IMG/VR virus record: IMGVR_UViG_3300027111_000003
Reading direction: 5' to 3' (one strand)
Origin: a virus
Length of the DNA: 42,874 bases
Made by a program: the position numbers and the translations under genes. Positions within the stretch are counted from its first letter, which is position 1, and each line of letters starts with the position of its first letter. The notes under the pieces were generated by a model, which was given only the letters and a program-made list of their open reading frames with translations, searched no databases and was not told the DNA's origin. Below are positions 3,318-42,874 of this stretch, one piece after another.

Positions 3318-3803
3318 ATGCGTGCTTTGATCCTGGCGGCACTCTCCGCCCTGGTAATGACAGCATACGCATACGCAGCCCCTATACCGCCGACCTACAC
3401 GATCTCCGAGGATTTCGGAGGCCGCCTGGACGAATACGAGCACAAGTACAACCGGTGGTCCCGCGAGGGTGCCAAGGTGATCCTCGACGGCATCTGCGGG
3501 AGCGCCTGTACGGTGGTCCTCAGTACCAAGTACAACCTGGATGTCTGTGCGACGGACAGGGCCGAGGTCCTCTTCCACATGCCCTTCATGCTCGACAAGC
3601 ACATGAAGCTCGTGGACACCCCGTACAACCGGGCACTCGCGATGGTGATCTGGCACGACCATTTCCTGCGGGTCCTCCCGCCCAAGATGGCGGCTGTACT
3701 GGAGAAGAAAAAGATACCGAGCGTCTACGAAGGCGCTGAGTACAACGAGATGATCGGATGGAAAGCCCCCGATCTTTTCAAACACGTCAAACCCTGTAAC
3801 TAA
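3318..3803 (+). CDS. Secreted/periplasmic protein with cleavable signal peptide (hypothetical)
   Basis: 161 aa. The N-terminus MRALILAALSALVMTAYAYA|AP is a typical Sec signal. The mature part contains G-x-C-G-SAC and several Cys. It weakly resembles ClpP/SppA-fold periplasmic protein families, from memory only. Confidence 0.75.
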   Translation: MRALILAALSALVMTAYAYAAPIPPTYTISEDFGGRLDEYEHKYNRWSREGAKVILDGICGSACTVVLSTKYNLDVCATDRAEVLFHMPFMLDKHMKLVDTPYNRALAMVIWHDHFLRVLPPKMAAVLEKKKIPSVYEGAEYNEMIGWKAPDLFKHVKPCN

Positions 3804-3823
3804 TTCTCTACGATAACGGAGAA
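3801..3823 (+). promoter_or_regulatory. Family-A 23-bp motif (TAATTCTCTACGATAAC|GGAGAA)
   Basis: Exact core CTCTACGATAACGGAGA as at 2920-2936. It overlaps the upstream stop codon and provides the SD for the ATG at 3830. Confidence 0.5.
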
Positions 3824-4033: not shown

Positions 4034-4057
4034 TCCCCCAATACCCATACCTTTTTT

Positions 4058-4080
4058 CTAATCCCTCCGATAACGAAGGA
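4058..4080 (+). promoter_or_regulatory. Family-A 23-bp motif variant (CTAATCCCTCCGATAAC|GAAGGA)
   Basis: TAAT + CCCTCC + GATAAC architecture, sequence-wise intermediate between families A and B. AAGGA serves as the SD for the ATG at 4087. Confidence 0.45.
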
Positions 4081-4086
4081 AATTCA

Positions 4087-4317
4087 ATGACCCCGACTGC
4101 ACAGATGAAAGCCATCCGCTCGAACACCCGCTACGTGGAGGCTTCCGTCCACTACAACCGCCGCAAGTTTGACAAGAAATACGAGGTTGTCGCTCGCCTC
4201 TACGACGACGCCCTCGAAGACCTCGGCGTTGCCATCGGCGGGGAAGTTGTCCTCGACGTCCGCGAAGACCGCCACGACGCCCTCGAAAGCGTCCGCTTCT
4301 TCCGTAACCAGGGCTGA
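4087..4317 (+). CDS. Hypothetical protein
   Basis: 76-aa ORF with an SD 7 nt upstream. Confidence 0.65.
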   Translation: MTPTAQMKAIRSNTRYVEASVHYNRRKFDKKYEVVARLYDDALEDLGVAIGGEVVLDVREDRHDALESVRFFRNQG

Positions 4318-5481: not shown

Positions 5482-5866
5482 CAGTCACCGGTTCCGTTCC
5501 GGCCTGGAACGACAGGTGGCCCGTCAGCTAGAGCTGGCGGGTCGCCCCTACGGGTTTGAAGAAGACAAGATCGACTACGTCAAACCCGCGAAGAGGGCCA
5601 AGTACAACCCCGACTTTCACGTCATCAAAAAGCGTGATGGGTCCAAAATGTACATCGAGAGCAAAGGCCGCTTCCTCACCGAGGACCGGGCCAAGCATCT
5701 CCTCATCCGAGATCAACATCCCGAGTTGGACATCCGCTTCGTGTTCCAGAACGCGAACGCCCGGATCAGTAAGACCTCGTCCACCACCTACGCCCGGTGG
5801 TGCACCGACAAGGGCTTCAAGTTCTCCGACAAGGGCATCATCCCAAAAGACTGGTTGAATGAATGA
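5471..5866 (+). CDS. Endonuclease I / Holliday-junction resolvase (T7 gp3-like)
   Basis: 131 aa. By-eye alignment to T7 gp3: FRSGLE, YNPDF, ESKG, HLLIRDQHPELDIRFVF, KGFKFSDK. Confidence 0.9.
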   Translation: MTINSHRFRSGLERQVARQLELAGRPYGFEEDKIDYVKPAKRAKYNPDFHVIKKRDGSKMYIESKGRFLTEDRAKHLLIRDQHPELDIRFVFQNANARISKTSSTTYARWCTDKGFKFSDKGIIPKDWLNE

Positions 5867-6501
5867 GAGTACTCGTTGCCTGTGAATACTCAGGCCGGGT
5901 CCGGGACGCCTTCGCTGCGCTGGGACACTACGCCCTTTCCTGTGACCTACTCCCTACGGAAGCAGAGGGAAACCACTACCAAGGCGATGTATCGGACATC
6001 ATAAACGACGGCTGGGACCTCATGGTTGCCCACCCGCCCTGCACGGACCTCGCGGTCTCCGGGGCTCGCCACTTCGCCGCCAAGATCGCCGATGGTCGCC
6101 AGCAGAGAGCCTTGGATTTCGTCCAGTTCCTCATGGATGCCCCCATCGATCGCATCTGCATTGAGAACCCCATCAGCATTATCAGCAGCCGCATCCGCAA
6201 GCCTGAGCAGATCATCCAGCCGTGGCAGTTTGGTCATCCTGAATTCAAGGCGACGTGTCTCTGGCTCAAGGGTCTCCAGCCGCTCACCCCGGTTAACCCA
6301 TTGGTTCCTCCTACAAAGCCCACAGGTTTCCTTACTCCCGAGGAATATGAGATCGCGTTGAAAGAGTGGCGGGGATGGAACCGAGTTCATCAGCTTCCCC
6401 CCGGTCCCAACCGGTGGAAGGAGCGCAGCCGCACCTTCGAGGGTGTCGCCGCAGCGATGGACGACCAGTGGGGACGTGAAGAACTCAAGGCGGTTGCATG
6501 A
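5863..6501 (+). CDS. Small C5-cytosine-methyltransferase-like protein (no recognisable target-recognition domain)
   Basis: 212 aa. Has motif-I-like VLVACEYSG, motif-IV-like HPPCTDLAVSG (Pro-Cys) and motif-VI-like IENP. ATGA overlap with the upstream stop. Confidence 0.55.
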   Translation: MRVLVACEYSGRVRDAFAALGHYALSCDLLPTEAEGNHYQGDVSDIINDGWDLMVAHPPCTDLAVSGARHFAAKIADGRQQRALDFVQFLMDAPIDRICIENPISIISSRIRKPEQIIQPWQFGHPEFKATCLWLKGLQPLTPVNPLVPPTKPTGFLTPEEYEIALKEWRGWNRVHQLPPGPNRWKERSRTFEGVAAAMDDQWGREELKAVA

Positions 6502-12547: not shown

Positions 12548-12560
12548 CTATCGACACATA

Positions 12561-12605: not shown

Positions 12606-12628
12606 AATTACCCCTCCATACAGAGAGA
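12606..12628 (+). promoter_or_regulatory. Family-B phage promoter candidate B2 (AATTACCCCTCCATACA|GAGAGA)
   Basis: Identical to the T3 consensus AATTAACCCTCACTAAAGGGAGA at 18 of 23 positions. It lies immediately after the terminator and ahead of the structural block. Confidence 0.65.
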
Positions 12629-15375: not shown

Positions 15376-16227
15376 ATGTCCAATCATCAATCCACTACCA
15401 TCACAGCCTCGGAGAACACCGGGCCGTCCCTCGAAGAACAGTATGAAGCCCTGAAAGCCGAAGGTCTGGTCTCAGACGATGAAGACGGCGCGACCACCGA
15501 GGCAACCCCAGTTGCTCAAGGGGGAGCAGACGGCGAGCAGGAGGGTGCCGGTAGTTCCGACGATCGCCCCTCCTGGCTCCCGGAAAAATTCGCCACGGTC
15601 GAAGACTACGTCGCCTACGTGAACGAGCTTGAAGCCAAGCAGACGGGCACGACGGAAGAAGACCCGGCTCCCCAGGCGACCCCTGAGGAAACCGCCGCAG
15701 CAGAGAAGGCCGCCGAGAAGGCTGGTCTGGACCTCGGCCAGGTGTCCCAGGAATGGTTCGCCAACGGTGGTCTCAAGGAAGAAACCTATGCCGCCCTCGA
15801 CAAGGCCGGTTACCCCCGCGAGATGGTTGACATCTACATCGAGGGTCTCACGAGCCGCACCACGCAGACGACCAAGCAAGCCTACGACCTCGTAGGTGGC
15901 GAGGAAAGCTACGGTGAGATGATCGAGTGGGCAATCGACAATCTGTCCCCCGAAGACCAGGCGGCATTCGACTCCGCCGTCAACTCCAACAACCCGCGAC
16001 AGGCCATCCTGGCGATCAAGGGCCTCAAGGCCGACTGGGAAGCCGCCCTCATGGCGGACATGTCCGACGAGCCGCAGACCCCTCTTAATGCCAAGGGCGC
16101 TGTCCCTCAGGCCGGTTACGCCTCGCTCGATGACTACATGGAGGACCTCAATGATCCCCGGTACGACAAGAACGAGACCTTCCGCGCCCAGGTAGCCGCC
16201 AAGCTGGCTAAATCCAACATCATGTAA
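15376..16227 (+). CDS. Scaffolding protein (T7 gp9-like)
   Basis: 283 aa. Strongly acidic and helical composition, located between portal and capsid. Confidence 0.8.
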   Translation: MSNHQSTTITASENTGPSLEEQYEALKAEGLVSDDEDGATTEATPVAQGGADGEQEGAGSSDDRPSWLPEKFATVEDYVAYVNELEAKQTGTTEEDPAPQATPEETAAAEKAAEKAGLDLGQVSQEWFANGGLKEETYAALDKAGYPREMVDIYIEGLTSRTTQTTKQAYDLVGGEESYGEMIEWAIDNLSPEDQAAFDSAVNSNNPRQAILAIKGLKADWEAALMADMSDEPQTPLNAKGAVPQAGYASLDDYMEDLNDPRYDKNETFRAQVAAKLAKSNIM

Positions 16228-16235
16228 GGACCTCG

Positions 16236-16466
16236 ATGGTGAGAGACTATGACAAAGAGTACGCGGCCTCTCGCCGTCCCGACCGCCGAGCGGACAACAT
16301 CGCTCGTAAACGTGCCCGTCGAAAGATGATTAAGAAGCACGGAGAGGCGGCCCTCAAGGGCAAAGAGGTCGATCACAAGAACATGAACCCGCAGAACAAC
16401 TCGTTCAGCAACCTGTCTATTATGACCCGCAAGGCCAATCGCAAGAAGCAGCCCAAGCGGAAGTAA
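16236..16466 (+). CDS. Small basic protein with HNH-like (H-N-N) motif
   Basis: 76 aa. KEVDHKNMNPQNNSFSNLSIMTRKANRKK resembles a minimal HNH core. SD AAGGA. Confidence 0.5.
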   Translation: MVRDYDKEYAASRRPDRRADNIARKRARRKMIKKHGEAALKGKEVDHKNMNPQNNSFSNLSIMTRKANRKKQPKRK

Positions 16467-16476
16467 TCCCCTTCAC

Positions 16477-16489
16477 CCCAGGTAACCCC
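16477..16489. repeat. 13-bp direct repeat CCCAGGTAACCCC, left copy (flanks lysis cassette)
   Basis: Exact copy at 17621-17633. Both copies lie about 10 nt after an AAGTAA stop context. Confidence 0.9.
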
Positions 16490-16491
16490 CA

Positions 16492-17040
16492 ATGAAAACC
16501 AGTGCTGCCGGTCGCAAGGCGATCCGCGCTCGCGAGGGCGTTGTCCTCAAGGCATACCGGGATTCGGTCGGCGTCCTGACCATCGGCGTCGGCCACACGT
16601 CCGCCGCAGGTTCCCCCAAGGTTACCCCCGGTCTGACCATCACCGCCACCCAGGCGGACGAGATTCTGTCCCGAGACCTGGCGATCTTCGAGAAGGCCGT
16701 CAACGCCTCCGTAAAGGTCCCGCTCTCCCAGAACGAGTTCGATGCCCTCGTGTCCCTCGCGTTTAACATCGGGGCAGGGGCGTTCAAGAAGTCCACGCTC
16801 GTCCGCGAGCTCAACAAGGGCAACCGGGCCGCTGCTGCCGATCAGTTCCTCAGATGGAACAAGGCCGGGGGCAGGACCCTCAAGGGCCTCGTGAACCGTC
16901 GCCACGCCGAGCGTCTCCAGTTCCTTTCGGGCAAGGCACCAGCCCCAGAGGTTCCCCAGGTTACCCCTGAGAAATCCCGAGGCTGGCTCACCGAGCTCAT
17001 CTTCCGGCTCCTCTCCGCGCTCTTTAGGAGAAAGACATGA
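16492..17040 (+). CDS. Endolysin, GH24 (lambda R/T4 E-type) lysozyme
   Basis: 182 aa. REGVVLKAYRDSVGVLTIGVGHT contains the Glu/Asp/Thr catalytic pattern, and NRRHAE is also present. The C-terminal segment GWLTELIFRLLSALFRRK is amphipathic. Confidence 0.88.
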   Translation: MKTSAAGRKAIRAREGVVLKAYRDSVGVLTIGVGHTSAAGSPKVTPGLTITATQADEILSRDLAIFEKAVNASVKVPLSQNEFDALVSLAFNIGAGAFKKSTLVRELNKGNRAAAADQFLRWNKAGGRTLKGLVNRRHAERLQFLSGKAPAPEVPQVTPEKSRGWLTELIFRLLSALFRRKT

Positions 17041-17240
17041 CACCCGTCATCATCCGCATCCTCCTGCGCTACGGCTCAGGATTCCTGGCCGCCAAGGGCC
17101 TCCTGGCCCCTGAGGTTGGCGTCGAGCTGGCCGAGGACCCGGACATCAATATGGTTCTCCAGGTTCTCTCGGGGATCGTCGCCGGGGCCGCCGCAGAGGG
17201 CTTCTACTACCTCGCCCGTAAGTTCGGGTGGGCCAAGTAA
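17037..17240 (+). CDS. Holin-like small membrane protein
   Basis: 67 aa with two hydrophobic segments. ATGA overlap with the endolysin stop. Confidence 0.55.
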   Translation: MTPVIIRILLRYGSGFLAAKGLLAPEVGVELAEDPDINMVLQVLSGIVAGAAAEGFYYLARKFGWAK

Positions 17241-17615
17241 GTGTTCCTGAAGTTCATCCTTTCGATGTTCTCCGGGCCTCTGGACCGCATCCTCGATACC
17301 GTAGACCGTAAGGTGGACAACGAGACCGCTCGGGAGGAAATCCGCAACAAGACGGTGTCCTCCTACGTCGAGCAGCTCGCTCGGGTGCAGACCTCCAAGT
17401 GGGGATGGGCGCCGCTCCTCTTCTACATCCCGGTGGGCTTCTGGTTCGCCGCAGTTTGCATCTACTCGGTCCTGTGGTGTCGCGATTGCGCCTTCCCGCA
17501 GGAGTGGTCCATCGCCGCCCTCCCGGCATCCCTCAATCCCTGGATAGGCCCGATCATTGGCTCGCTGTTTATCGGCAAGGCCGGTGAGACGATCCTCCGG
17601 GTCCTCCGCAAGTAA
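17241..17615 (+). CDS. Membrane protein of the lysis cassette (resembles 3-TM GTA-type holins)
   Basis: 124 aa (GTG 17241 or ATG 17265). A soluble N-terminal part is followed by hydrophobic spans (WAPLLFYIPVGFWFAAVCIYSVLW, PWIGPIIGSLFIG). The family assignment is from memory only. Confidence 0.55.
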   Translation: MFLKFILSMFSGPLDRILDTVDRKVDNETAREEIRNKTVSSYVEQLARVQTSKWGWAPLLFYIPVGFWFAAVCIYSVLWCRDCAFPQEWSIAALPASLNPWIGPIIGSLFIGKAGETILRVLRK

Positions 17616-17620
17616 ACCCT

Positions 17621-17633
17621 CCCAGGTAACCCC
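17621..17633. repeat. 13-bp direct repeat CCCAGGTAACCCC, right copy
   Basis: Identical to 16477-16489. It also forms the hairpin CCCAGG-TAACC-CCTGGG. Confidence 0.9.
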
Positions 17634-17662
17634 TGGGTGGGCTGTGAAGTATCAGATCAAGG

Positions 17663-17685
17663 AAGATCACCACACTATAGCCGCT
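17663..17685 (+). promoter_or_regulatory. Possible late promoter upstream of the capsid gene (AAGATCACCACACTATA|G)
   Basis: Contains ACACTATAG, identical to the SP6 promoter core, and shares 10 of 18 positions with family B. Single occurrence, so this is weak. Confidence 0.3.
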
Positions 17686-17849
17686 CCTCTTTAGGAGGGC
17701 GATCTCCCTTATGATTTCGAGCAAAACGAATACTCTCAAGTAACCTCAGGTCCCCTCGGGGAATAACCTCCAGATGAAACCGAGTTTTCCGAAGCGAAGT
17801 CACACCGCGCCGCCTTTGCCGCGCACTCTGATTACTTCCGAGAACTTTA

Positions 17850-18821
17850 ATGCCTCAGTCCACAACTACCACTGCTGGTGTACCGGCAGGTCCGTCCCAT
17901 TCGGACAACCTCTACCTGAAGGTCTTCTCTGGTGAGACCATGAAGGTCTTCAACAAGCGCACGGCTCTCAAGGGTCGCCACCGCGAACGCACGATTGCCT
18001 CGGGTAAGAGCGCACAGTTCGCTGCGATCGGCAAGGCCGCCGCAGAATATCATACGCCGGGTAATCTGATCCTCGGTCAGGACATCAACCACGGCGAGAA
18101 GGTCATCACCATCGATGACATGCTCATCTCCTCGACGTTCGTCTCGAACTTCGAAGAGGCCATGAACCACTACGAGACCCGTAGCGAGTATGCCTTCCAG
18201 ATGGGTGACAGCCTTGCTCAGGCGTATGACCAGCACCTCTTTGCTATCGCCACCAAGGCGGCTGTCAACGGCACGACCGGCGCAGTTACCGAGATGGGCG
18301 CTGCTACCGAAGACAAGATCGGTGCCACGCCGACGATCGCCAACATCGTTGACGCAATCTACAACGCCGCTGCCTACTTCGACGCGACGAACGTCCCGGA
18401 CACCGAGCGCACCGCGTTCGTCACTCCGTCCGTCTACTGGGACCTCGTCCAGGACGGCTCGTTCCTCGACCGTGACTTCGGCAACGATGGTAACGGCTCG
18501 CAGTCCAAGGGCGCTGTCTACCGCGCTGCTGGCATCGAGATCGTTCCCTCGAACAACCTCGCGCTGAACTTCGGCGTGGCTACGCTCGCTGGCCGTCAGG
18601 CTGGCTCGGCCACCACGGACTACACCGTAGACGGCTCCACGTCGCTCGTCCTCATCATGCAGAAACAGGCCCTCGGCACTGTCAAGCTGATGAACCTCGC
18701 GACGGAGAAGGAATACCAGGTTGGCCGTCAGGGCACCCTGATGGTCTCCCGTATGGCTTGCGGTCACGGCGTTCTGCGCCCTGAGTGCATCCGCCTGATC
18801 TCCGCGAAGGCCGCCGCCTAA
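17850..18821 (+). CDS. Major capsid protein (T7 gp10A-like)
   Basis: 323 aa. By-eye alignment to T7 gp10: LYLKVFSGE, SGKSAQF, EKVITIDD, EEAMNHYETRSEY. Confidence 0.96.
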   Translation: MPQSTTTTAGVPAGPSHSDNLYLKVFSGETMKVFNKRTALKGRHRERTIASGKSAQFAAIGKAAAEYHTPGNLILGQDINHGEKVITIDDMLISSTFVSNFEEAMNHYETRSEYAFQMGDSLAQAYDQHLFAIATKAAVNGTTGAVTEMGAATEDKIGATPTIANIVDAIYNAAAYFDATNVPDTERTAFVTPSVYWDLVQDGSFLDRDFGNDGNGSQSKGAVYRAAGIEIVPSNNLALNFGVATLAGRQAGSATTDYTVDGSTSLVLIMQKQALGTVKLMNLATEKEYQVGRQGTLMVSRMACGHGVLRPECIRLISAKAAA

Positions 18822-18830
18822 CACTCCATA

Positions 18831-18861
18831 GGGAGGTCCTTAATTGGGCCTCCCTTTTTTT
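18831..18861 (+). terminator. Terminator after the capsid gene (T-phi analogue)
   Basis: 9-bp stem GGGAGGTCC/GGGCCTCCC with a 6-nt loop, followed by TTTTTTT. Confidence 0.85.
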
Positions 18862-18878
18862 CCTTAGGGAGCCTTCCC

Positions 18879-19478
18879 GTGTCAGTTAAGTCCTATACCG
18901 AGCTTGAGGCGGTAAACCTCATCCTAAGAAACATGGGCGAAGCCCCTGTAAACTCCCTTTCAAGTCCCCCGCTGGATGCCTCCGAGGCCCTTGCGACCCT
19001 CCAAGAGACCTCGTTCGAAGTGCAGAAGCGCGGCTGGTACTTCAACACCGAAATTTACCGGCTCTCCCCGGACAACAACGGGAACATCCAGCTCCCGGTG
19101 AACACCCTCCATGTCGAGTCCACAGGGAACTCCAAGGGCACCCGGGTGGTCAGCCGTAACGGCCTCCTCTACCGCATCAAGCCGTTCGACAACGGCCCGG
19201 TATTCGAGGGACCGATGGAGCTCCGCCTGGTTCTCGGGCTGGATTTCACCGATCTCCCGGCATCCGCCCGGTCCTACATCGCCATCCGCGCCTCGCGTGT
19301 GTCCCAGGTCCGCTCGGTGGGCGACCAGATGAGCGCCCAGGACGACAGCCAGGACGAAACCCGGGCCTTCGCCGAGCTCCACGCAGAACAGCTAGCCGCC
19401 GAGCGGCTGTCTCTCAAGAACTCCGTGACGGTCAGCAGTGGCTTGTATGGAGCGTATACGCCTCAGGTAGTCCAGTAA
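18879..19478 (+). CDS. Tail tubular protein A (T7 gp11-like)
   Basis: 199 aa. GTG start 8 nt after GGGAG. By-eye similarity to gp11 (ELEAVNLILRNMGEAPV, QKRGWYFN). Confidence 0.88.
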   Translation: MSVKSYTELEAVNLILRNMGEAPVNSLSSPPLDASEALATLQETSFEVQKRGWYFNTEIYRLSPDNNGNIQLPVNTLHVESTGNSKGTRVVSRNGLLYRIKPFDNGPVFEGPMELRLVLGLDFTDLPASARSYIAIRASRVSQVRSVGDQMSAQDDSQDETRAFAELHAEQLAAERLSLKNSVTVSSGLYGAYTPQVVQ

Positions 19479-30910: not shown

Positions 30911-31138
30911 ATGGACCCCTCAATCCTTAACGAACTCCAGCGATCCCTCGGACGCATCGAGGGCAAGCAAGACGCCCTCCTGTTGAACCAGGACCGCCTC
31001 CGGGAGGACTACGACACGATCCGCAAGGACGTGGACGGTCTCCGCTTCCGGCTCAACACATACTCCGGGGCGCTGGCCGCAGTCGGAACGATTACGATGC
31101 TGTTCAAGGACCGCCTCACTCAAATTTTCCTCGGGTAA
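30911..31138 (+). CDS. Hypothetical coiled-coil protein with C-terminal hydrophobic segment
   Basis: 75 aa, at the position of T7 gp17.5, but I see no sequence similarity. Confidence 0.55.
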   Translation: MDPSILNELQRSLGRIEGKQDALLLNQDRLREDYDTIRKDVDGLRFRLNTYSGALAAVGTITMLFKDRLTQIFLG

Positions 31139-33163: not shown

Positions 33164-33200
33164 GACAAGGAAAGGGGAGACAAAAGTGAAGACAAGTCTG

Positions 33201-33230
33201 TTGACTTCTTCTACTCTTCTGTGCTACCCT
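33201..33230 (+). promoter_or_regulatory. Host-type promoter candidate P1 (TTGACT-N18-TACCCT)
   Basis: CTGTTGACTTC is shared with P2. First of three TTGACTTC elements. Confidence 0.4.
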
Positions 33231-33347
33231 ATCTAACTTAAAGATAACTTAGAGACATCCTAGGTTATCTTAGGTTTATTACTAGTTAGATAAGAGTAGT
33301 ATAATATCTTAGGTTACCCCAGAGGTTCCCCCGGAGATAACTTAGAG
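33211..33347. repeat. A+T-rich repeat cluster (interrupted inverted repeat and ATCTTAGGTT / GATAACTTAGAG direct repeats)
   Basis: CTACTCTT...ATCTAACT (33211-38) pairs with AGTTAGATAAGAGTAG (33284-99). ATCTTAGGTT occurs at 33267-76 and 33306-15. GATAACTTAGAG occurs at 33243-54 and 33336-47. Confidence 0.85.
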
Positions 33348-33441
33348 TGAACCACGAGTTCCCTCCGGGTTCCTCCGACGGGCTTCCTACTACTCTCTCC
33401 CATACTTGGTTTGATGTATCGATTTACTTTCCCCCAGAGAG

Positions 33442-33470
33442 CCCTCAGGAGTCCCTCAGGGACCCTCTGG
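33442..33470. repeat. Three helically phased copies of CCCTCAGG/CCCTCTGG (10-11 bp spacing)
   Basis: Copies at 33442-49, 33453-60 and 33463-70. This is the reverse complement of the motif in the array at 33850-33941. Confidence 0.85.
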
Positions 33471-33849
33471 GCTACCACCGTAGCCGAGCACCCCCAGAAC
33501 GCTCTCCACGGGCTCCTGTGGGCGATTACGGGGCACATGGAGGTGCACCCGAGGGTTACCCGGGGGAACCCCGCGACCTTTTTCTGAAAAATCTGCATCC
33601 CTGTATCATATATACCCACAACCTACAATCCCCCCGTGGCCCCCTGTAGAGCAACCTGGAGTGCCCTATACGGCACGACCAACCGGCACAGTCTCCACTA
33701 AGTGATTGATTTCATTAGGGTACACATTAGATGTAGTATCGGTTAGGGCCGACGAGGGCGGGGATAACCCCAGGTTTCCCGGGGTTTCCAGCCTTCTATG
33801 TCTATACATATTCAAGCCTCCGTGTCCCCTCCCACATTTTTTCCCTCCA

Positions 33850-33941
33850 GGGCAACCTGAGGGCACCCCGAGGGCAACCGAGAGTCCACCGCTCCCATGT
33901 CATCCGGTTCCCTCCAGGGTCACCGAGGGGTCACCGAGGGG
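33850..33941. repeat. Five 11-bp tandem units GGGYMMCCNGA (3 + 2 copies)
   Basis: GGGCAACCTGA, GGGCACCCCGA and GGGCAACCGAG at 33850-82. GGGTCACCGAG occurs twice at 33917-38. Confidence 0.85.
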
Positions 33942-34112
33942 ACTAACTATCTATCACGTTATGTTACACTCTGTAACAATTCACCTCGTAAAGCTGCTGG
34001 ATAGCAGCGTACATCCAACCAAGCATATATAGCACACGCGCATAACGCACGGTTCCAATCCTATACCGATGGCCCCTCAGCGCAGCCGCTCAAACTTTCT
34101 TCGATAAGCCTG

Positions 34113-34141
34113 TTGACTTCGATAACGGAGATATGCTTATC
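34113..34141 (+). promoter_or_regulatory. Host-type promoter candidate P2 fused to a family-A core (TTGACTTCGATAACGGAGA)
   Basis: The -35 hexamer TTGACT is directly followed by CGATAACGGAGA. A possible -10 (GCTTAT/CTTATC) lies 16-17 nt downstream. Confidence 0.45.
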
Positions 34142-34350
34142 TGTAGTCACGGTGATCGAAAGAGAAACCGGGCAGAGGTCCTCCGGGGTCTCTGAGTTCT
34201 TCGAAATCGATAGATGGTCTCTTTGAGTTACCTCAAGGTCTCCACCGGTTCACTGGGTCTCAACCGCTCAACCTGCTACGGCAAACAGAGTACTGAGAAG
34301 CTGGAAAACACGGCAGGACAACAAACCAAGAGAAAGCCTCAAAATAGGGA

Positions 34351-34378
34351 TTGACTTCGATAACGAAGCGAATACAGT
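34351..34378 (+). promoter_or_regulatory. Host-type promoter candidate P3 (TTGACT-N16-TACAGT) fused to a family-A-like core
   Basis: TTGACTTCGATAACGAAG followed by TACAGT. It has the same -10 flavour as the regulator promoter at 39906. Confidence 0.5.
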
Positions 34379-34707
34379 TAGACACAACAGAGCGGCGGCG
34401 GCAGAGCGCTAAAGCGGATCGGATGGAAACTCCGAGTGTTCTTTGAAAATCAAATAGGGAAGTGTGGACATGTCCAAAGCACGTAGTGCGGAGGGGCGGC
34501 CTGGTAAACCGCAACGGGAAACCGTGTGTCCACTACGATAACCCACGAAATGGCTCCCGCGTCCAAAGCGTCGGAGTAAGTGCAGTGCATACTAGCCACG
34601 GGTCTTAGGTCCATACTAAGTGTCCCGTGTTTCCATTACCTTCGATTGTCTTAGCCAACCGCAGCATTTGCGGTTCGTTAAAGCAATCCAACCGGGGAGC
34701 ACCTCAA

Positions 34708-34995
34708 ATGACCGTCACAATCAAAACCGATAACAAATGGAAAGACTTCAAGTACGCCAACGAGGTTCCGGCAAAGGTCCTCGCGTCACAGTTCGACCAC
34801 CTGGAGGACGAAACTGATGGTTTCATCCTATACCGTGGCCGCTGGTATCACCTTTCGGACTTCATGCGCGTTCCTGAAGGGGCGGAGGACTTGAAGGGCT
34901 GGCATGGTTACGCCGGTGATAGTTTCTTTAGTGGCGTCCTCATCAAAGTGAGCCGCGACGGCGAGCAATATATGATTGCCACGCATTTGTCCTAA
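34708..34995 (+). CDS. Early protein, hypothetical
   Basis: 95 aa from the ATG at 34708, 8 nt after GGGGAG. The track ORF starts upstream at a non-ATG codon. First gene downstream of P1-P3. Confidence 0.65.
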   Translation: MTVTIKTDNKWKDFKYANEVPAKVLASQFDHLEDETDGFILYRGRWYHLSDFMRVPEGAEDLKGWHGYAGDSFFSGVLIKVSRDGEQYMIATHLS

Positions 34996-35014
34996 TCTCT
35001 GCGATAACGGAGAG
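34992..35014 (+). promoter_or_regulatory. Family-A 23-bp motif (CTAATCTCTGCGATAAC|GGAGAG)
   Basis: Overlaps the upstream stop codon. Its downstream sequence GAGAGACACG is shared with family-B copy B2. Confidence 0.5.
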
Positions 35015-35147: not shown

Positions 35148-35480
35148 ATGGACATCGATTTTAGCACGGCAACTGCCATCGGCATCATTAACCGATCAAT
35201 CCTTATGCATCCGTCTCTTTTCAGGGATGCCGTGATGTCCCGCTATCAGGAGGACATTGGCTATGCGTCCAAGTCCGAAGGCCGCACCCGTCAAGCCGTT
35301 CTCGCAAGTGCCGACGCATCCCTTCGAGGATATAACATCGTGGCGGAGGGATACCAGATCGATGCAATCGACATGGCTTCCGGTATCATCCTGCTTAACA
35401 TCGCGTGTAAGCTCCAATGCATCCCAGCGTATGTCAGGACGGCAGCAGCCCTCCGCACTTGGCCGGGCGACGACGTCTAA
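35148..35480 (+). CDS. Early protein, hypothetical
   Basis: 110 aa from the ATG at 35148, 8 nt after GGAGA. The track ORF starts at 35088 with a non-ATG codon. Confidence 0.55.
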   Translation: MDIDFSTATAIGIINRSILMHPSLFRDAVMSRYQEDIGYASKSEGRTRQAVLASADASLRGYNIVAEGYQIDAIDMASGIILLNIACKLQCIPAYVRTAAALRTWPGDDV

Positions 35481-35500
35481 TTCCCTGCGATAACGTAGAG
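35478..35500 (+). promoter_or_regulatory. Family-A 23-bp motif variant (TAATTCCCTGCGATAAC|GTAGAG)
   Basis: Overlaps the stop at 35478-80 and is followed by a structured leader. Confidence 0.45.
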
Positions 35501-35581
35501 ATAACCTGTACCGATTGTCTTATCGGCCCCTCGGGTAACCCCTGAGGCGCCCATTAAGTTAATCCAACGGGAGCAACGATC

Positions 35582-35743: not shown

Positions 35744-35816
35744 TGCGATTGTCTCTGATACACCTCGCGTGTCTCCTGGTGTTAACCATCGGGTTTCTCG
35801 CGGGTGAAACTGTGTT

Positions 35817-35839
35817 CTAATCTCTCCGATTGTGAAGGG
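35817..35839 (+). promoter_or_regulatory. Degenerate family-A motif (CTAATCTCTCCGATTGTGAAGGG)
   Basis: The upstream half is identical to family A; the downstream half has diverged. Confidence 0.3.
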
Positions 35840-36341: not shown

Positions 36342-36361
36342 CCGAGGAGAGGTGTGTCCGA

Positions 36362-36550
36362 ATGCCTACGATAACGGAGACAACAGGTCTCACCACAGAA
36401 GCCCTCGAAGCTGTCATCGAGGAGCTCCGCGCCAACGATAGTCCCCTGGTGCCTGGGATAACCGTGAGTAACCAGCGGCGGATACCCGTTGTGGACTTCT
36501 ATTTCCCAAGGCTGTGGGGGGGCCCACCCCGACCTCCTCGTTGTCGATGA
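36362..36550 (+). CDS. Short ORF, possibly the true N-terminus of the following large protein (frame change at a G7 run)
   Basis: Strong SD (GAGGAGAGG) 9 nt upstream of the ATG at 36362. The ORF overlaps the +1 frame ORF, which is open from 36489. G7 lies at 36516-36522. Confidence 0.35.
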   Translation: MPTITETTGLTTEALEAVIEELRANDSPLVPGITVSNQRRIPVVDFYFPRLWGGPPRPPRCR

Positions 36551-42747: not shown

Positions 42748-42874
42748 GATTTAGGTTCTTCCGTGTTTTCTCTCCGGTAAAGAAGACAATAAACTCAAGG
42801 TCCTAGCAAACCTTGGGTTTTTCTTTGCCCTAAATATCTTCTGTATCGGAGAGACTGCGATAGCGGAGTGCCAC
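42748..42874. repeat. Terminal direct repeat, copy 2 (identical to 1..127)
   Basis: Exact duplicate of the first 127 bases. Confidence 0.95.

Follow-up and report, generated by a model that had tools for sequence, protein, structure and literature searches.

A T7-like phage with its lysis cassette in a variable scaffold-capsid slot, and terminator-type hairpins as a candidate source of the flanking 13-nt repeats

Introduction

How did a lysis cassette come to stand between the scaffold and major capsid genes of a T7-like phage, and do the short direct repeats at its two ends record its arrival? The question is raised by the IMG/VR virus record IMGVR_UViG_3300027111_000003, a stretch of 42,874 nucleotides that is referred to below as the window. 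The lysis genes of phage T7 are those of the gp3.5 amidase, the gp17.5 holin and the gp18.5/18.7 spanins. In the window, genes for a GH24 endolysin and two membrane proteins are found between a small HNH-like gene, which follows the scaffold gene, and the gene of the major capsid protein, and a 13-mer, CCCAGGTAACCCC, flanks them on either side. A preliminary description of the window took the two copies for a duplicated junction left by insertion or exchange of the cassette and named a shared regulatory element as the alternative. As is set out below, exchange of the cassette is well supported. As to the repeats, we lean towards regarding the region as a lysis module in a swappable slot whose 13-mers are one intact and one truncated terminator-type hairpin, and not a target-site duplication.

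Results

The lysis cassette occupies a slot with variable contents

The window encodes a single-subunit RNA polymerase (RNAP; PF00940, 4e-100), a T7 primase-helicase, DNA polymerase A, a T7 single-stranded DNA-binding protein, endonuclease I and a T7 tail fibre, as well as portal, tube, nozzle and terminase proteins. It thus has the RNAP and the T7-type order of replication and structural genes by which the Autographiviridae are recognised. Open reading frames (ORFs) and family matches confirmed the endolysin and the two membrane proteins between the scaffold and HNH-like genes and the capsid gene (Table 1), and both gene families and synteny support the earlier statement that the cassette lies at a non-T7 position.

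Sister phages (contigs designated by L numbers) were retrieved by capsid- and terminase-anchored searches and share 64-100% capsid identity with the window. The HNH-like gene is present, at 58-96% amino acid identity, in every sister locus that reaches the region (the truncated L013 excluded), those with an empty slot included, and stands at the same position in the T7-like Roseobacter phage CRP-804 and Pelagibacter phage HTVC011P. Since it is kept in all of these, we regard it as part of the backbone and not as cassette cargo.

The contents of the interval, in contrast, change from sister to sister. The window and L006 have the order HNH - [GH24, holin-like, phrog_12264], where phrog_12264 is the family of the second membrane protein, whereas L007 and L008 have HNH - [Amidase_2, transmembrane (TM) protein, Rz-like, lipoprotein]. 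In two further sisters, the cassette stands in the adjacent scaffold-HNH slot: [GH24, Phage_holin_10, Rz-like, lipoprotein] - HNH in L012 and [GH108, GTA_holin_3TM] - HNH in L079. Two tRNA genes (Met and Asn, 5656-5807) are found in L011, and no gene is inserted in L009, L010, L014 and L077, with a possible tRNA-Ala in the L009 gap (884-956, an ARAGORN call). Among other T7-like loci, L004 and L005 have one tRNA-Asn each in the scaffold-capsid interval (5699-5769 and 4077-4152, respectively). In deposited genomes, the same interval holds a tRNA-Asn in RHEph01 and LUZ100 and holin and spanin genes in Ralstonia phage BOESR1. Because tRNA genes recur in the scaffold-capsid interval of different T7-like phages, the slot is a landing site for accessory genes in general.

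In sisters whose slot is empty, the lysis genes are found next to the gene of the small terminase (terS). In L100, L101 and L102, a phrog_12264 homologue lies just upstream of terS, at the T7 gp17.5 position; a detailed reading of L100 (6948-8258) showed it to follow a GH19 endolysin, whose end is a hydrophobic cationic helix, and to precede a 59-aa TM protein. L099 (7741-9723) has a GH19 endolysin and an 85-aa GTA-holin-like protein beside terS. With other cassettes, tRNAs or nothing at this place in sister phages, the view that the cassette was inserted or exchanged is borne out, and exchange at a recombination hot spot that comprises this slot and the adjacent scaffold-HNH slot, with four non-homologous lysis cassettes, is well supported. 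No flanking repeats longer than 7 nt were found at the other cassettes in the clade.

Table 1. Position and basis of assignment of features in and around the scaffold-capsid interval and of related elements elsewhere in the window
Feature	Position	Strand	Basis
Scaffold, T7 gp9-type (capsid assembly); left backbone anchor of the slot	15376..16227	+	PF05396 2.6e-13; phrog_1052 3.5e-46
HNH_3-like gene, 76 aa; backbone	16236..16466	+	PF13392 1.3e-8
Left junction spacer, including 13-mer copy 1 (16477-16489)	16467..16491	+	unstructured half-hairpin
GH24 muramidase endolysin	16492..17040	+	PF00959 2e-48; phrog_7 2e-65
Holin-like membrane protein, 67 aa (Pam3 gp28 / Phage_holin_10 type)	17037..17240	+	PF23987 22.6 bits, cutoff 27
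Membrane protein, 124 aa, family phrog_12264	17241..17615	+	phrog_12264 2e-24
Stem-loop closing the cassette, including 13-mer copy 2 (17621-17633)	17617..17641	+	dG -17.2, z -2.6
Structured capsid-gene leader, conserved; right backbone anchor	17642..17849	+	alignment with L008; fold z -3.2
Major capsid gene (T7 gp10A-like)	17850..18821	+	PF21703 2.6e-62
Canonical intrinsic terminator after the capsid gene (T7 T-phi position)	18830..18865	+	10-bp stem + T7 run
75-aa ORF between the tail fibre gene and terS, where T7 has gp17.5 (holin)	30911..31138	+	phrog_1103 8e-4 (function unassigned)
Third TAACC-loop hairpin, CCCGGG-TAACC-CTCGGG	33546..33564	-	matches the copy-2 hairpin at 16/19 positions; non-coding, past the large terminase gene
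Second TAACC-loop hairpin, GGC-C-CCUCGGG-UAACC-CCUGAGG-C-GCC	35525..35551	+	dG -18.1, z -3.2
Copies of the CTAATCTCTNCGATAACGGAGA motif	2911-2936, 3797-3822, 4054-4079, 34106-34131, 34988-35013, 35474-35499, 35813-35838, 36355-36380		

The right copy of the 13-mer belongs to a stable hairpin

As had been described, the 13-mer is present in exactly two copies in the window, both exact, both on the plus strand and flanking the cassette (Table 1). The further remark that each copy follows an AAGTAA stop context by about 10 nt holds for copy 1 (10 nt) and not for copy 2 (5 nt). The identity ends at exactly 13 nt, the flanks being unrelated, and copy 1 is located 11 nt after the HNH stop codon and 3 nt before the endolysin start, copy 2 being located 6 nt after the last stop codon of the cassette.

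Copy 2 lies within a stable hairpin, ACCC-U-CCCAGG-UAACC-CCUGGG-U-GGGU, of which it forms the inner 5' arm and the loop and, on the 3' side, the first two bases of the arm. Homology to sister L008 resumes directly 3' of this hairpin. A stable stem-loop is found at the corresponding point of every sister, between the last ORF and the conserved capsid leader, but differs from one to the next, so that position is conserved and sequence is not. Two more hairpins with a TAACC loop and closely similar stems are found in non-coding DNA of the window (Table 1) and are conserved in all variants. The one at 35525-35551 lies 26 nt past a promoter-like element and has GGTAACCCCTG in common with copy 2. 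In addition, the 17-mer CCCAGGTAACCCCTGGG occurs exactly in seven other viral contigs, where it tops hairpins with extra G-C pairs followed by a T-rich run; to judge by these features, they look like intrinsic terminators. An Rfam scan of 16200-17900 (E<=1) retrieved nothing. A short reading frame that starts behind the right copy, with GTG at 17637, was rejected as a gene because L008 does not keep the frame.

The left copy consists of the same 5' arm, loop and first two bases of the 3' arm, with the rest of the 3' arm missing, and it does not fold (folding free energy, dG, -2.5; z-score, z, -0.14). Its AGG is situated 9 nt before the endolysin ATG. Similar Shine-Dalgarno (SD) spacers are found before unrelated first genes, CCCAGGAAATCCC-GTG before the amidase of L007 (11/13 identical) and TCAGGGAAATCCC-ATG before the lysozyme of L020.

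Two haplotypes differ at the left junction

All public-assembly contigs with an identical capsid protein (16/16) carry the cassette, in two forms. The window form has both 13-mers; it includes L080, which is 100% identical to the window, and its junction was found in about five independent contigs. The second form, typified by L006 and L081, is ~98% identical and co-circulating, and has the same cassette, the same hairpin at 17617-17641 and the right 13-mer only. Carriers of the right copy alone are L006, L081, L085, L088 and L089. In L006-type genomes, the left spacer is replaced by a 64-codon ORF between the HNH-like and endolysin genes (L006 4452-4646). The left 13-mer lies inside a non-homologous patch of ~15 nt immediately upstream of the endolysin ATG, and the sole large indel between the haplotypes in the compared region abuts the left half copy, the motif not being on both sides of it.

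The 64-codon ORF has no Pfam or PHROG match and no homologue in any fetched locus. The stop codon of this ORFan (MKPSHTRGASFPVFWDEC…) overlaps the endolysin start (ATGA). The exact 18-mer of the left junction has no other occurrence in IMG/VR. When intermediate relatives were sought, endolysin homologues dropped from 100% to 70% identity, and a metagenome scan added only two new loci. Over 12-19 kb, the haplotypes differ at ~2 sites per 100 nt, and over ~1.5 kb (17500-19000, comprising the cassette end, the leader and the capsid gene) at none, an invariant tract that suggests recent recombination or a sweep.

The 13-mer pair and chance

Genome-wide, 115 exact 13-mers are repeated, so the repeat is not beyond chance over the whole genome. 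In an intergenic null model (2000 shuffles of 3.6 kb in 33 spacers taken from crude gene calls, shared functional motifs being ignored), the expected number of spacer pairs sharing a 13-mer was 0.06 per genome and 0.0035 within 1.5 kb, and the pair thus exceeds simple chance. The other shared intergenic 13-mers all belong to a 22-nt promoter-like family described below. Near-copies (one or two mismatches) are concentrated in the genes of the scaffold and the endolysin, in a single reading frame encoding P-x-(V/A)-T-P linkers, so that they reflect an effect at the protein level; in the endolysin gene, they lie at 16955 (one mismatch) and 16616 (two mismatches) and encode PQVTP and PKVTP.

Explanations of the repeats

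According to the reading given in the preliminary description, the cassette would have entered as a unit, by a staggered cut or a circle crossover at a 13-bp core that was thereby duplicated, insertion of the 64-codon ORF having later cost L006-type genomes the left copy. The copies are direct and intergenic and lie at both breaks of backbone homology, which, together with the low chance expectation and the recurrence of the window-type junction in independent contigs, speaks for such a footprint. So does the 11/13 match at the left junction of L007, the closest outgroup, which suggests that the motif belongs to the backbone target. One would then expect the empty site to carry one CCCAGGTAACCCC between the HNH stop codon and TGGGTGGGCTGTG, i.e., AAGTAATCCCCTTCACCCCAGGTAACCCCTGGGTGGGCTGTG, while the junction of a 1,144-bp circle would run from the stop codon of the 124-aa membrane protein gene (mp124) into CCCAGGTAACCCC-CAATGAAAACC, with CGCAAGTAAACCCTCCCAGGTAACCCCCAATGAAAACCAG as the junction of a circle or tandem duplication. 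Yet none of the five empty sites searched (L009, L010, L011, L014 and L077) contained the motif, a weak test given capsid proteins only 77-80% identical, and just one of the two haplotypes has both copies. Moreover, related cassettes outside T7-like phages have the motif at neither end, the other hot-spot cassettes have no such flanking repeats, and neither a transposase or integrase (by Pfam and PHROG family matches of the cassette ORFs, in or beside the cassette) nor terminal inverted repeats were found; the right copy is, besides, independently explained as a hairpin. We consider an insertion footprint improbable, and the claim of a duplicated junction could not be maintained. The alternative named in the same description, a shared regulatory element, fits better, with the right copy forming half of a terminator-type hairpin and a modification as to the left copy, which would be a truncated version serving as the endolysin SD spacer.

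A serious rival is pure coincidence of two functional elements, the left one being a C-rich SD spacer with AGG at ~9 nt from the endolysin start and the right one half of a GC-rich hairpin. The number of 13-mers repeated genome-wide, the resemblance of the L007 and L020 spacers to the left one, the explanation of the coding near-copies by linkers and the abrupt end of the identity at 13 nt are all in line with it. Against it stand the intergenic null and the fact that the left copy reaches beyond an SD-like core and reproduces loop and 5' arm of the hairpin as well as the first two bases of its 3' arm, and we hold coincidence to be possible, if somewhat unlikely. The two copies might also be binding sites for a regulatory protein or RNA, or partners in long-range pairing, that jointly time the lysis genes relative to scaffold and capsid. 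Going by T7 genes 9 and 10, the two neighbouring genes should be expressed at very high levels, so that a cassette between them would plausibly need insulation, and a related hairpin is located in a 5' untranslated region, 26 nt after a promoter-like element; however, L006-type genomes do without the left copy, long-range complementarity amounts to only 6 bp with the local hairpin being far more favourable, and the sequence is not conserved in sister phages. Such a joint timing device is highly improbable.

Several points also weigh against the reading that we prefer, that of one intact and one truncated terminator-type hairpin. The similar spacers of L007 and L020 allow the left copy to be convergent, and the putative common descent of the left and right copies is read from 13 nt. 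The collections contain no relative between ~91% and 98% identity by which the ancestral state of the junction, with or without the 64-codon ORF, could be polarised. The TAACC-loop hairpins of the window lack the U-tract that true intrinsic terminators have and that is present in the terminators at 12560 and 18830, so their terminator function is putative. Finally, the hairpin family comprises three full members, with stems that are alike rather than clearly covarying.

Proteins of the lysis cassette

The translation of the endolysin contains the motif E15-X8-D24-X5-T30. By hydropathy, the protein has neither a signal or SAR (signal-arrest-release) segment nor any hydrophobic segment, and it would therefore be cytoplasmic and holin-dependent; it ends in a cationic amphipathic helix. 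The start of the holin-like gene overlaps the endolysin stop codon (ATGA), and its product has one clear TM segment at residues 36-56. The PF23987 score of this protein is below the cutoff, while its positional counterpart in L012 reaches 28.1 bits, above it. The phrog_12264 protein has a TM segment at 56-81 and is linked to lysis cassettes by its gene context, its part in lysis being putative. The possibility that it is a distant GTA_holin_3TM (PF11351) was dismissed, since hhalign gave a probability of 2.9% and Pfam scans of 10 members found nothing. The G+C content of the cassette, overall and at third codon positions, is the same as that of the backbone, so that by composition nothing points to a recent import.

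The GH24 endolysin of L012 (605-1246) and the GH19 endolysin of L100 (6948-7721) carry a C-terminal helix similar to that of the window endolysin. The tails of both folds are alike in being a short cationic amphipathic or hydrophobic helix (…WLTELIFRLLSALFRRKT, …LIQLLLEFIKRFLKK, …VLKIIVKLIVTLLRIVLKK), and this common tail may be a membrane-targeting or outer-membrane-active element.

Two absences stated in the preliminary description were corroborated. No T7-type amidase was evident: the 10 ORFs of the replication block had no Amidase_2 match and tblastn with sister-phage amidases was negative. Likewise, tblastn with sister Rz/Rz1 proteins was negative and no plausible lipobox ORF was seen anywhere on the plus strand, so that neither a spanin pair nor a unimolecular spanin was detected, both of these tests being limited ones. 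The BOESR1 protein annotated as "endolysin; inhibits RNA polymerase", used as a gp3.5 probe, found no match; this probe was uninformative, its sequence not looking like an amidase. A 212-aa ORF at 5863-6501, with no Pfam match, fills the T7 gp3.5 position between endonuclease I and primase-helicase. The 75-aa ORF at the gp17.5 position (Table 1) has no TM segment by the hydropathy threshold used, a predicted coiled-coil N-terminus and a weakly hydrophobic C-terminus; it is kept in L096-L099 and might act as an accessory of the tail fibre or as a second holin-like factor.

Occurrence of the cassette type

The endolysin has its nearest non-self homologues at 70% identity, among them prophage lysozymes of Sinorhizobium, Brucella and Shinella. 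Homologues of the 124-aa protein at 80-87% amino acid identity, with endolysins at ~65%, are present in IMG/VR contigs without T7-like structural genes within the fetched flanks. It is in non-T7 contigs that the cassette has its closest homologues, those in temperate phages of alphaproteobacteria being more distant. T7-like genomes were not among the other ~40-kb contigs with endolysin homologues at 66-68%. The order endolysin, small TM protein, phrog_12264 also occurs in Bradyrhizobium ppBeUSDA76-2, Sulfitobacter pCB2047-C, Rhizobium RHph_X2_25 and an integrase-bearing contig, and a GH24, GH19 or GH108 endolysin ends within 1.5 kb upstream in 40 of the 57 loci with a phrog_12264 homologue.

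A scan of the genome collection with a single protein returned nothing. The alignment-based scan matched prophage regions only, in Xanthobacteraceae, Bradyrhizobium, Mesorhizobium, Shinella and Rhodobacterales, and this distribution of related sequences points to an alphaproteobacterial host. Any direction of cassette transfer between these phages and the T7-like ones would be putative.

Capsid leader and other features of the window

About 190 nt of the capsid leader are conserved across the clade (L008-L014, L077, L079 and L012). The leader contains a hairpin, CGCTCCTC-TTTAG-GAGGGCG, with the alternative pairing GGAGG-GCGA-TCTCC, a tetraloop hairpin with compensatory changes, followed by ATAACC, and one last hairpin ahead of the ribosome-binding site. 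Possible roles of the leader are those of a promoter/attenuator and of a translational operator for the capsid gene.

The 22-nt motif CTAATCTCTNCGATAACGGAGA, built like a T7-type phage RNAP promoter, is present in eight copies (Table 1), all in early or replication regions and none in the structural region. Late-gene promoters must therefore differ or be absent. No copy of this motif is found near the cassette, and no sigma-70-like site upstream of it. An exact 18-nt repeat, AATTACCCCTCCATACAG, is found at 369-386, ~40 nt upstream of the RNAP gene, and at 12606-12623, directly behind the 12560 terminator and ahead of the portal region, and is perhaps a promoter or some other regulatory site. 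The ends of the window, 1-127 and 42748-42874, are identical over exactly 127 bp; rather than genuine terminal repeats, this looks like an overlap left by an assembler with k=127 in a circular contig. The physical ends of the genome are more likely to lie in the long non-coding stretch at ~33164-34600 that follows the large terminase gene.

Discussion

The window resembles T7 in its single-subunit RNAP, in the order portal, scaffold, capsid and tail tube A/B, in having terS and the large terminase gene (terL) after the tail fibre gene and in the T-phi-like terminator after the capsid gene; the lysis genes of its empty-slot sisters stand, as in T7, at the gp17.5 position. It differs from T7 in having no amidase at the gp3.5 position and no spanins that the limited tests could find, in using a GH24 muramidase as endolysin and in carrying the module between the equivalents of genes 9 and 10. 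How the module would work can be sketched as follows. The lysis genes would be transcribed along with the late structural genes, the 67-aa holin-like protein would permeabilise the inner membrane and the muramidase would degrade the wall. Because no spanins were found, we assign disruption of the outer membrane, conditionally, to the phrog_12264 protein and/or the amphipathic tail of the endolysin.

If the 13-mers are one intact and one truncated hairpin, the stem-loop at the right copy would close the upstream transcription unit just before the capsid leader. The left copy, as a truncated hairpin, would let transcription and translation reach the endolysin gene because it cannot fold, with its AGG acting as the SD sequence. 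The identity of the 13-mers would most likely reflect common descent from punctuation hairpins, which may have been short recombination joints, the left copy presumably having arisen by truncation.

A bolder version of this idea treats the TAACC-loop hairpins as portable recombination joints, by analogy with the PeSLs (promoter early stem-loops) of T4-type phages. PeSLs are short repeated regulatory stem-loops that flank variable genes in hyperplastic regions, and recombination between the motifs shuffles modules (Arbiol et al. 2010, PMC2839356; Comeau et al. 2014, PMC4122927). A possible likeness is that indels between very close relatives abut a stem-loop motif. PeSLs differ from the elements of the window in combining a sigma-70 promoter with a proven terminator and in being present in dozens of copies, whereas the window has three hairpins plus a half copy, which lack a U-tract and, at the cassette, an associated promoter. 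In such a scenario, a mini-circle or donor segment carrying the endolysin, holin and phrog_12264 genes would have recombined into a terminator hairpin behind the HNH-like gene, leaving a truncated and an intact hairpin, and breaks made by the HNH nuclease may make both of its flanks a landing pad for lysis cassettes and tRNAs. We regard this as doubtful. If true, it would provide a defined mechanism for moving and swapping whole lysis modules in T7-like phages; if the repeats do not stem from hairpin-mediated recombination, they caution against inferring insertion from short flanking repeats alone.

Among other systems, Ralstonia phage BOESR1 (Autographiviridae, Gyeongsanvirus, OR367448) likewise has a holin (phrog_1356, 7e-15) and an Rz-like spanin (phrog_1275, 5e-16) between scaffold and capsid genes, but its interval contains no recognisable endolysin and, by tblastn, no HNH-like gene, and its proteins are unrelated to those of the window. 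In Pseudomonas phage LUZ100 (PMC10134795; OP329100), the interval holds small accessory ORFs, the tRNA-Asn, the labelled terminators T13-T15 and one labelled phage promoter, and these GenBank-recorded elements make it a regulatory and accessory slot; unlike in the window, there are no lysis genes in it, and its elements are unrelated in sequence to those described here. Cassettes of alphaproteobacterial temperate phages share gene order and families with the window, the proteins of Bradyrhizobium ppBeUSDA76-2 being 52%, 40% and 53% identical to its own. They differ in belonging to non-T7 genomes, in lacking the 13-mer at either end and, usually, in having a fourth small TM gene after phrog_12264 that is missing in the window.

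That lysis cassettes are exchanged as modules is well known, and at least one Autographiviridae genome in the databases already has lysis genes annotated between scaffold and capsid. New here are the clear hot spot, the link of phrog_12264 to lysis cassettes and the putative hairpin-derived repeat. The phrog_12264 family is consistently endolysin-linked and, here, occurs only in cassettes without a detected spanin, which makes it a candidate for an outer-membrane or holin-accessory function in alphaproteobacterial phages. The position of lysis genes in T7-like phages is not fixed: one clade uses three positions and four unrelated hydrolases (GH24, GH19, GH108 and Amidase_2), with or without spanins, and annotators of such phages should check the scaffold-capsid interval for lysis genes.

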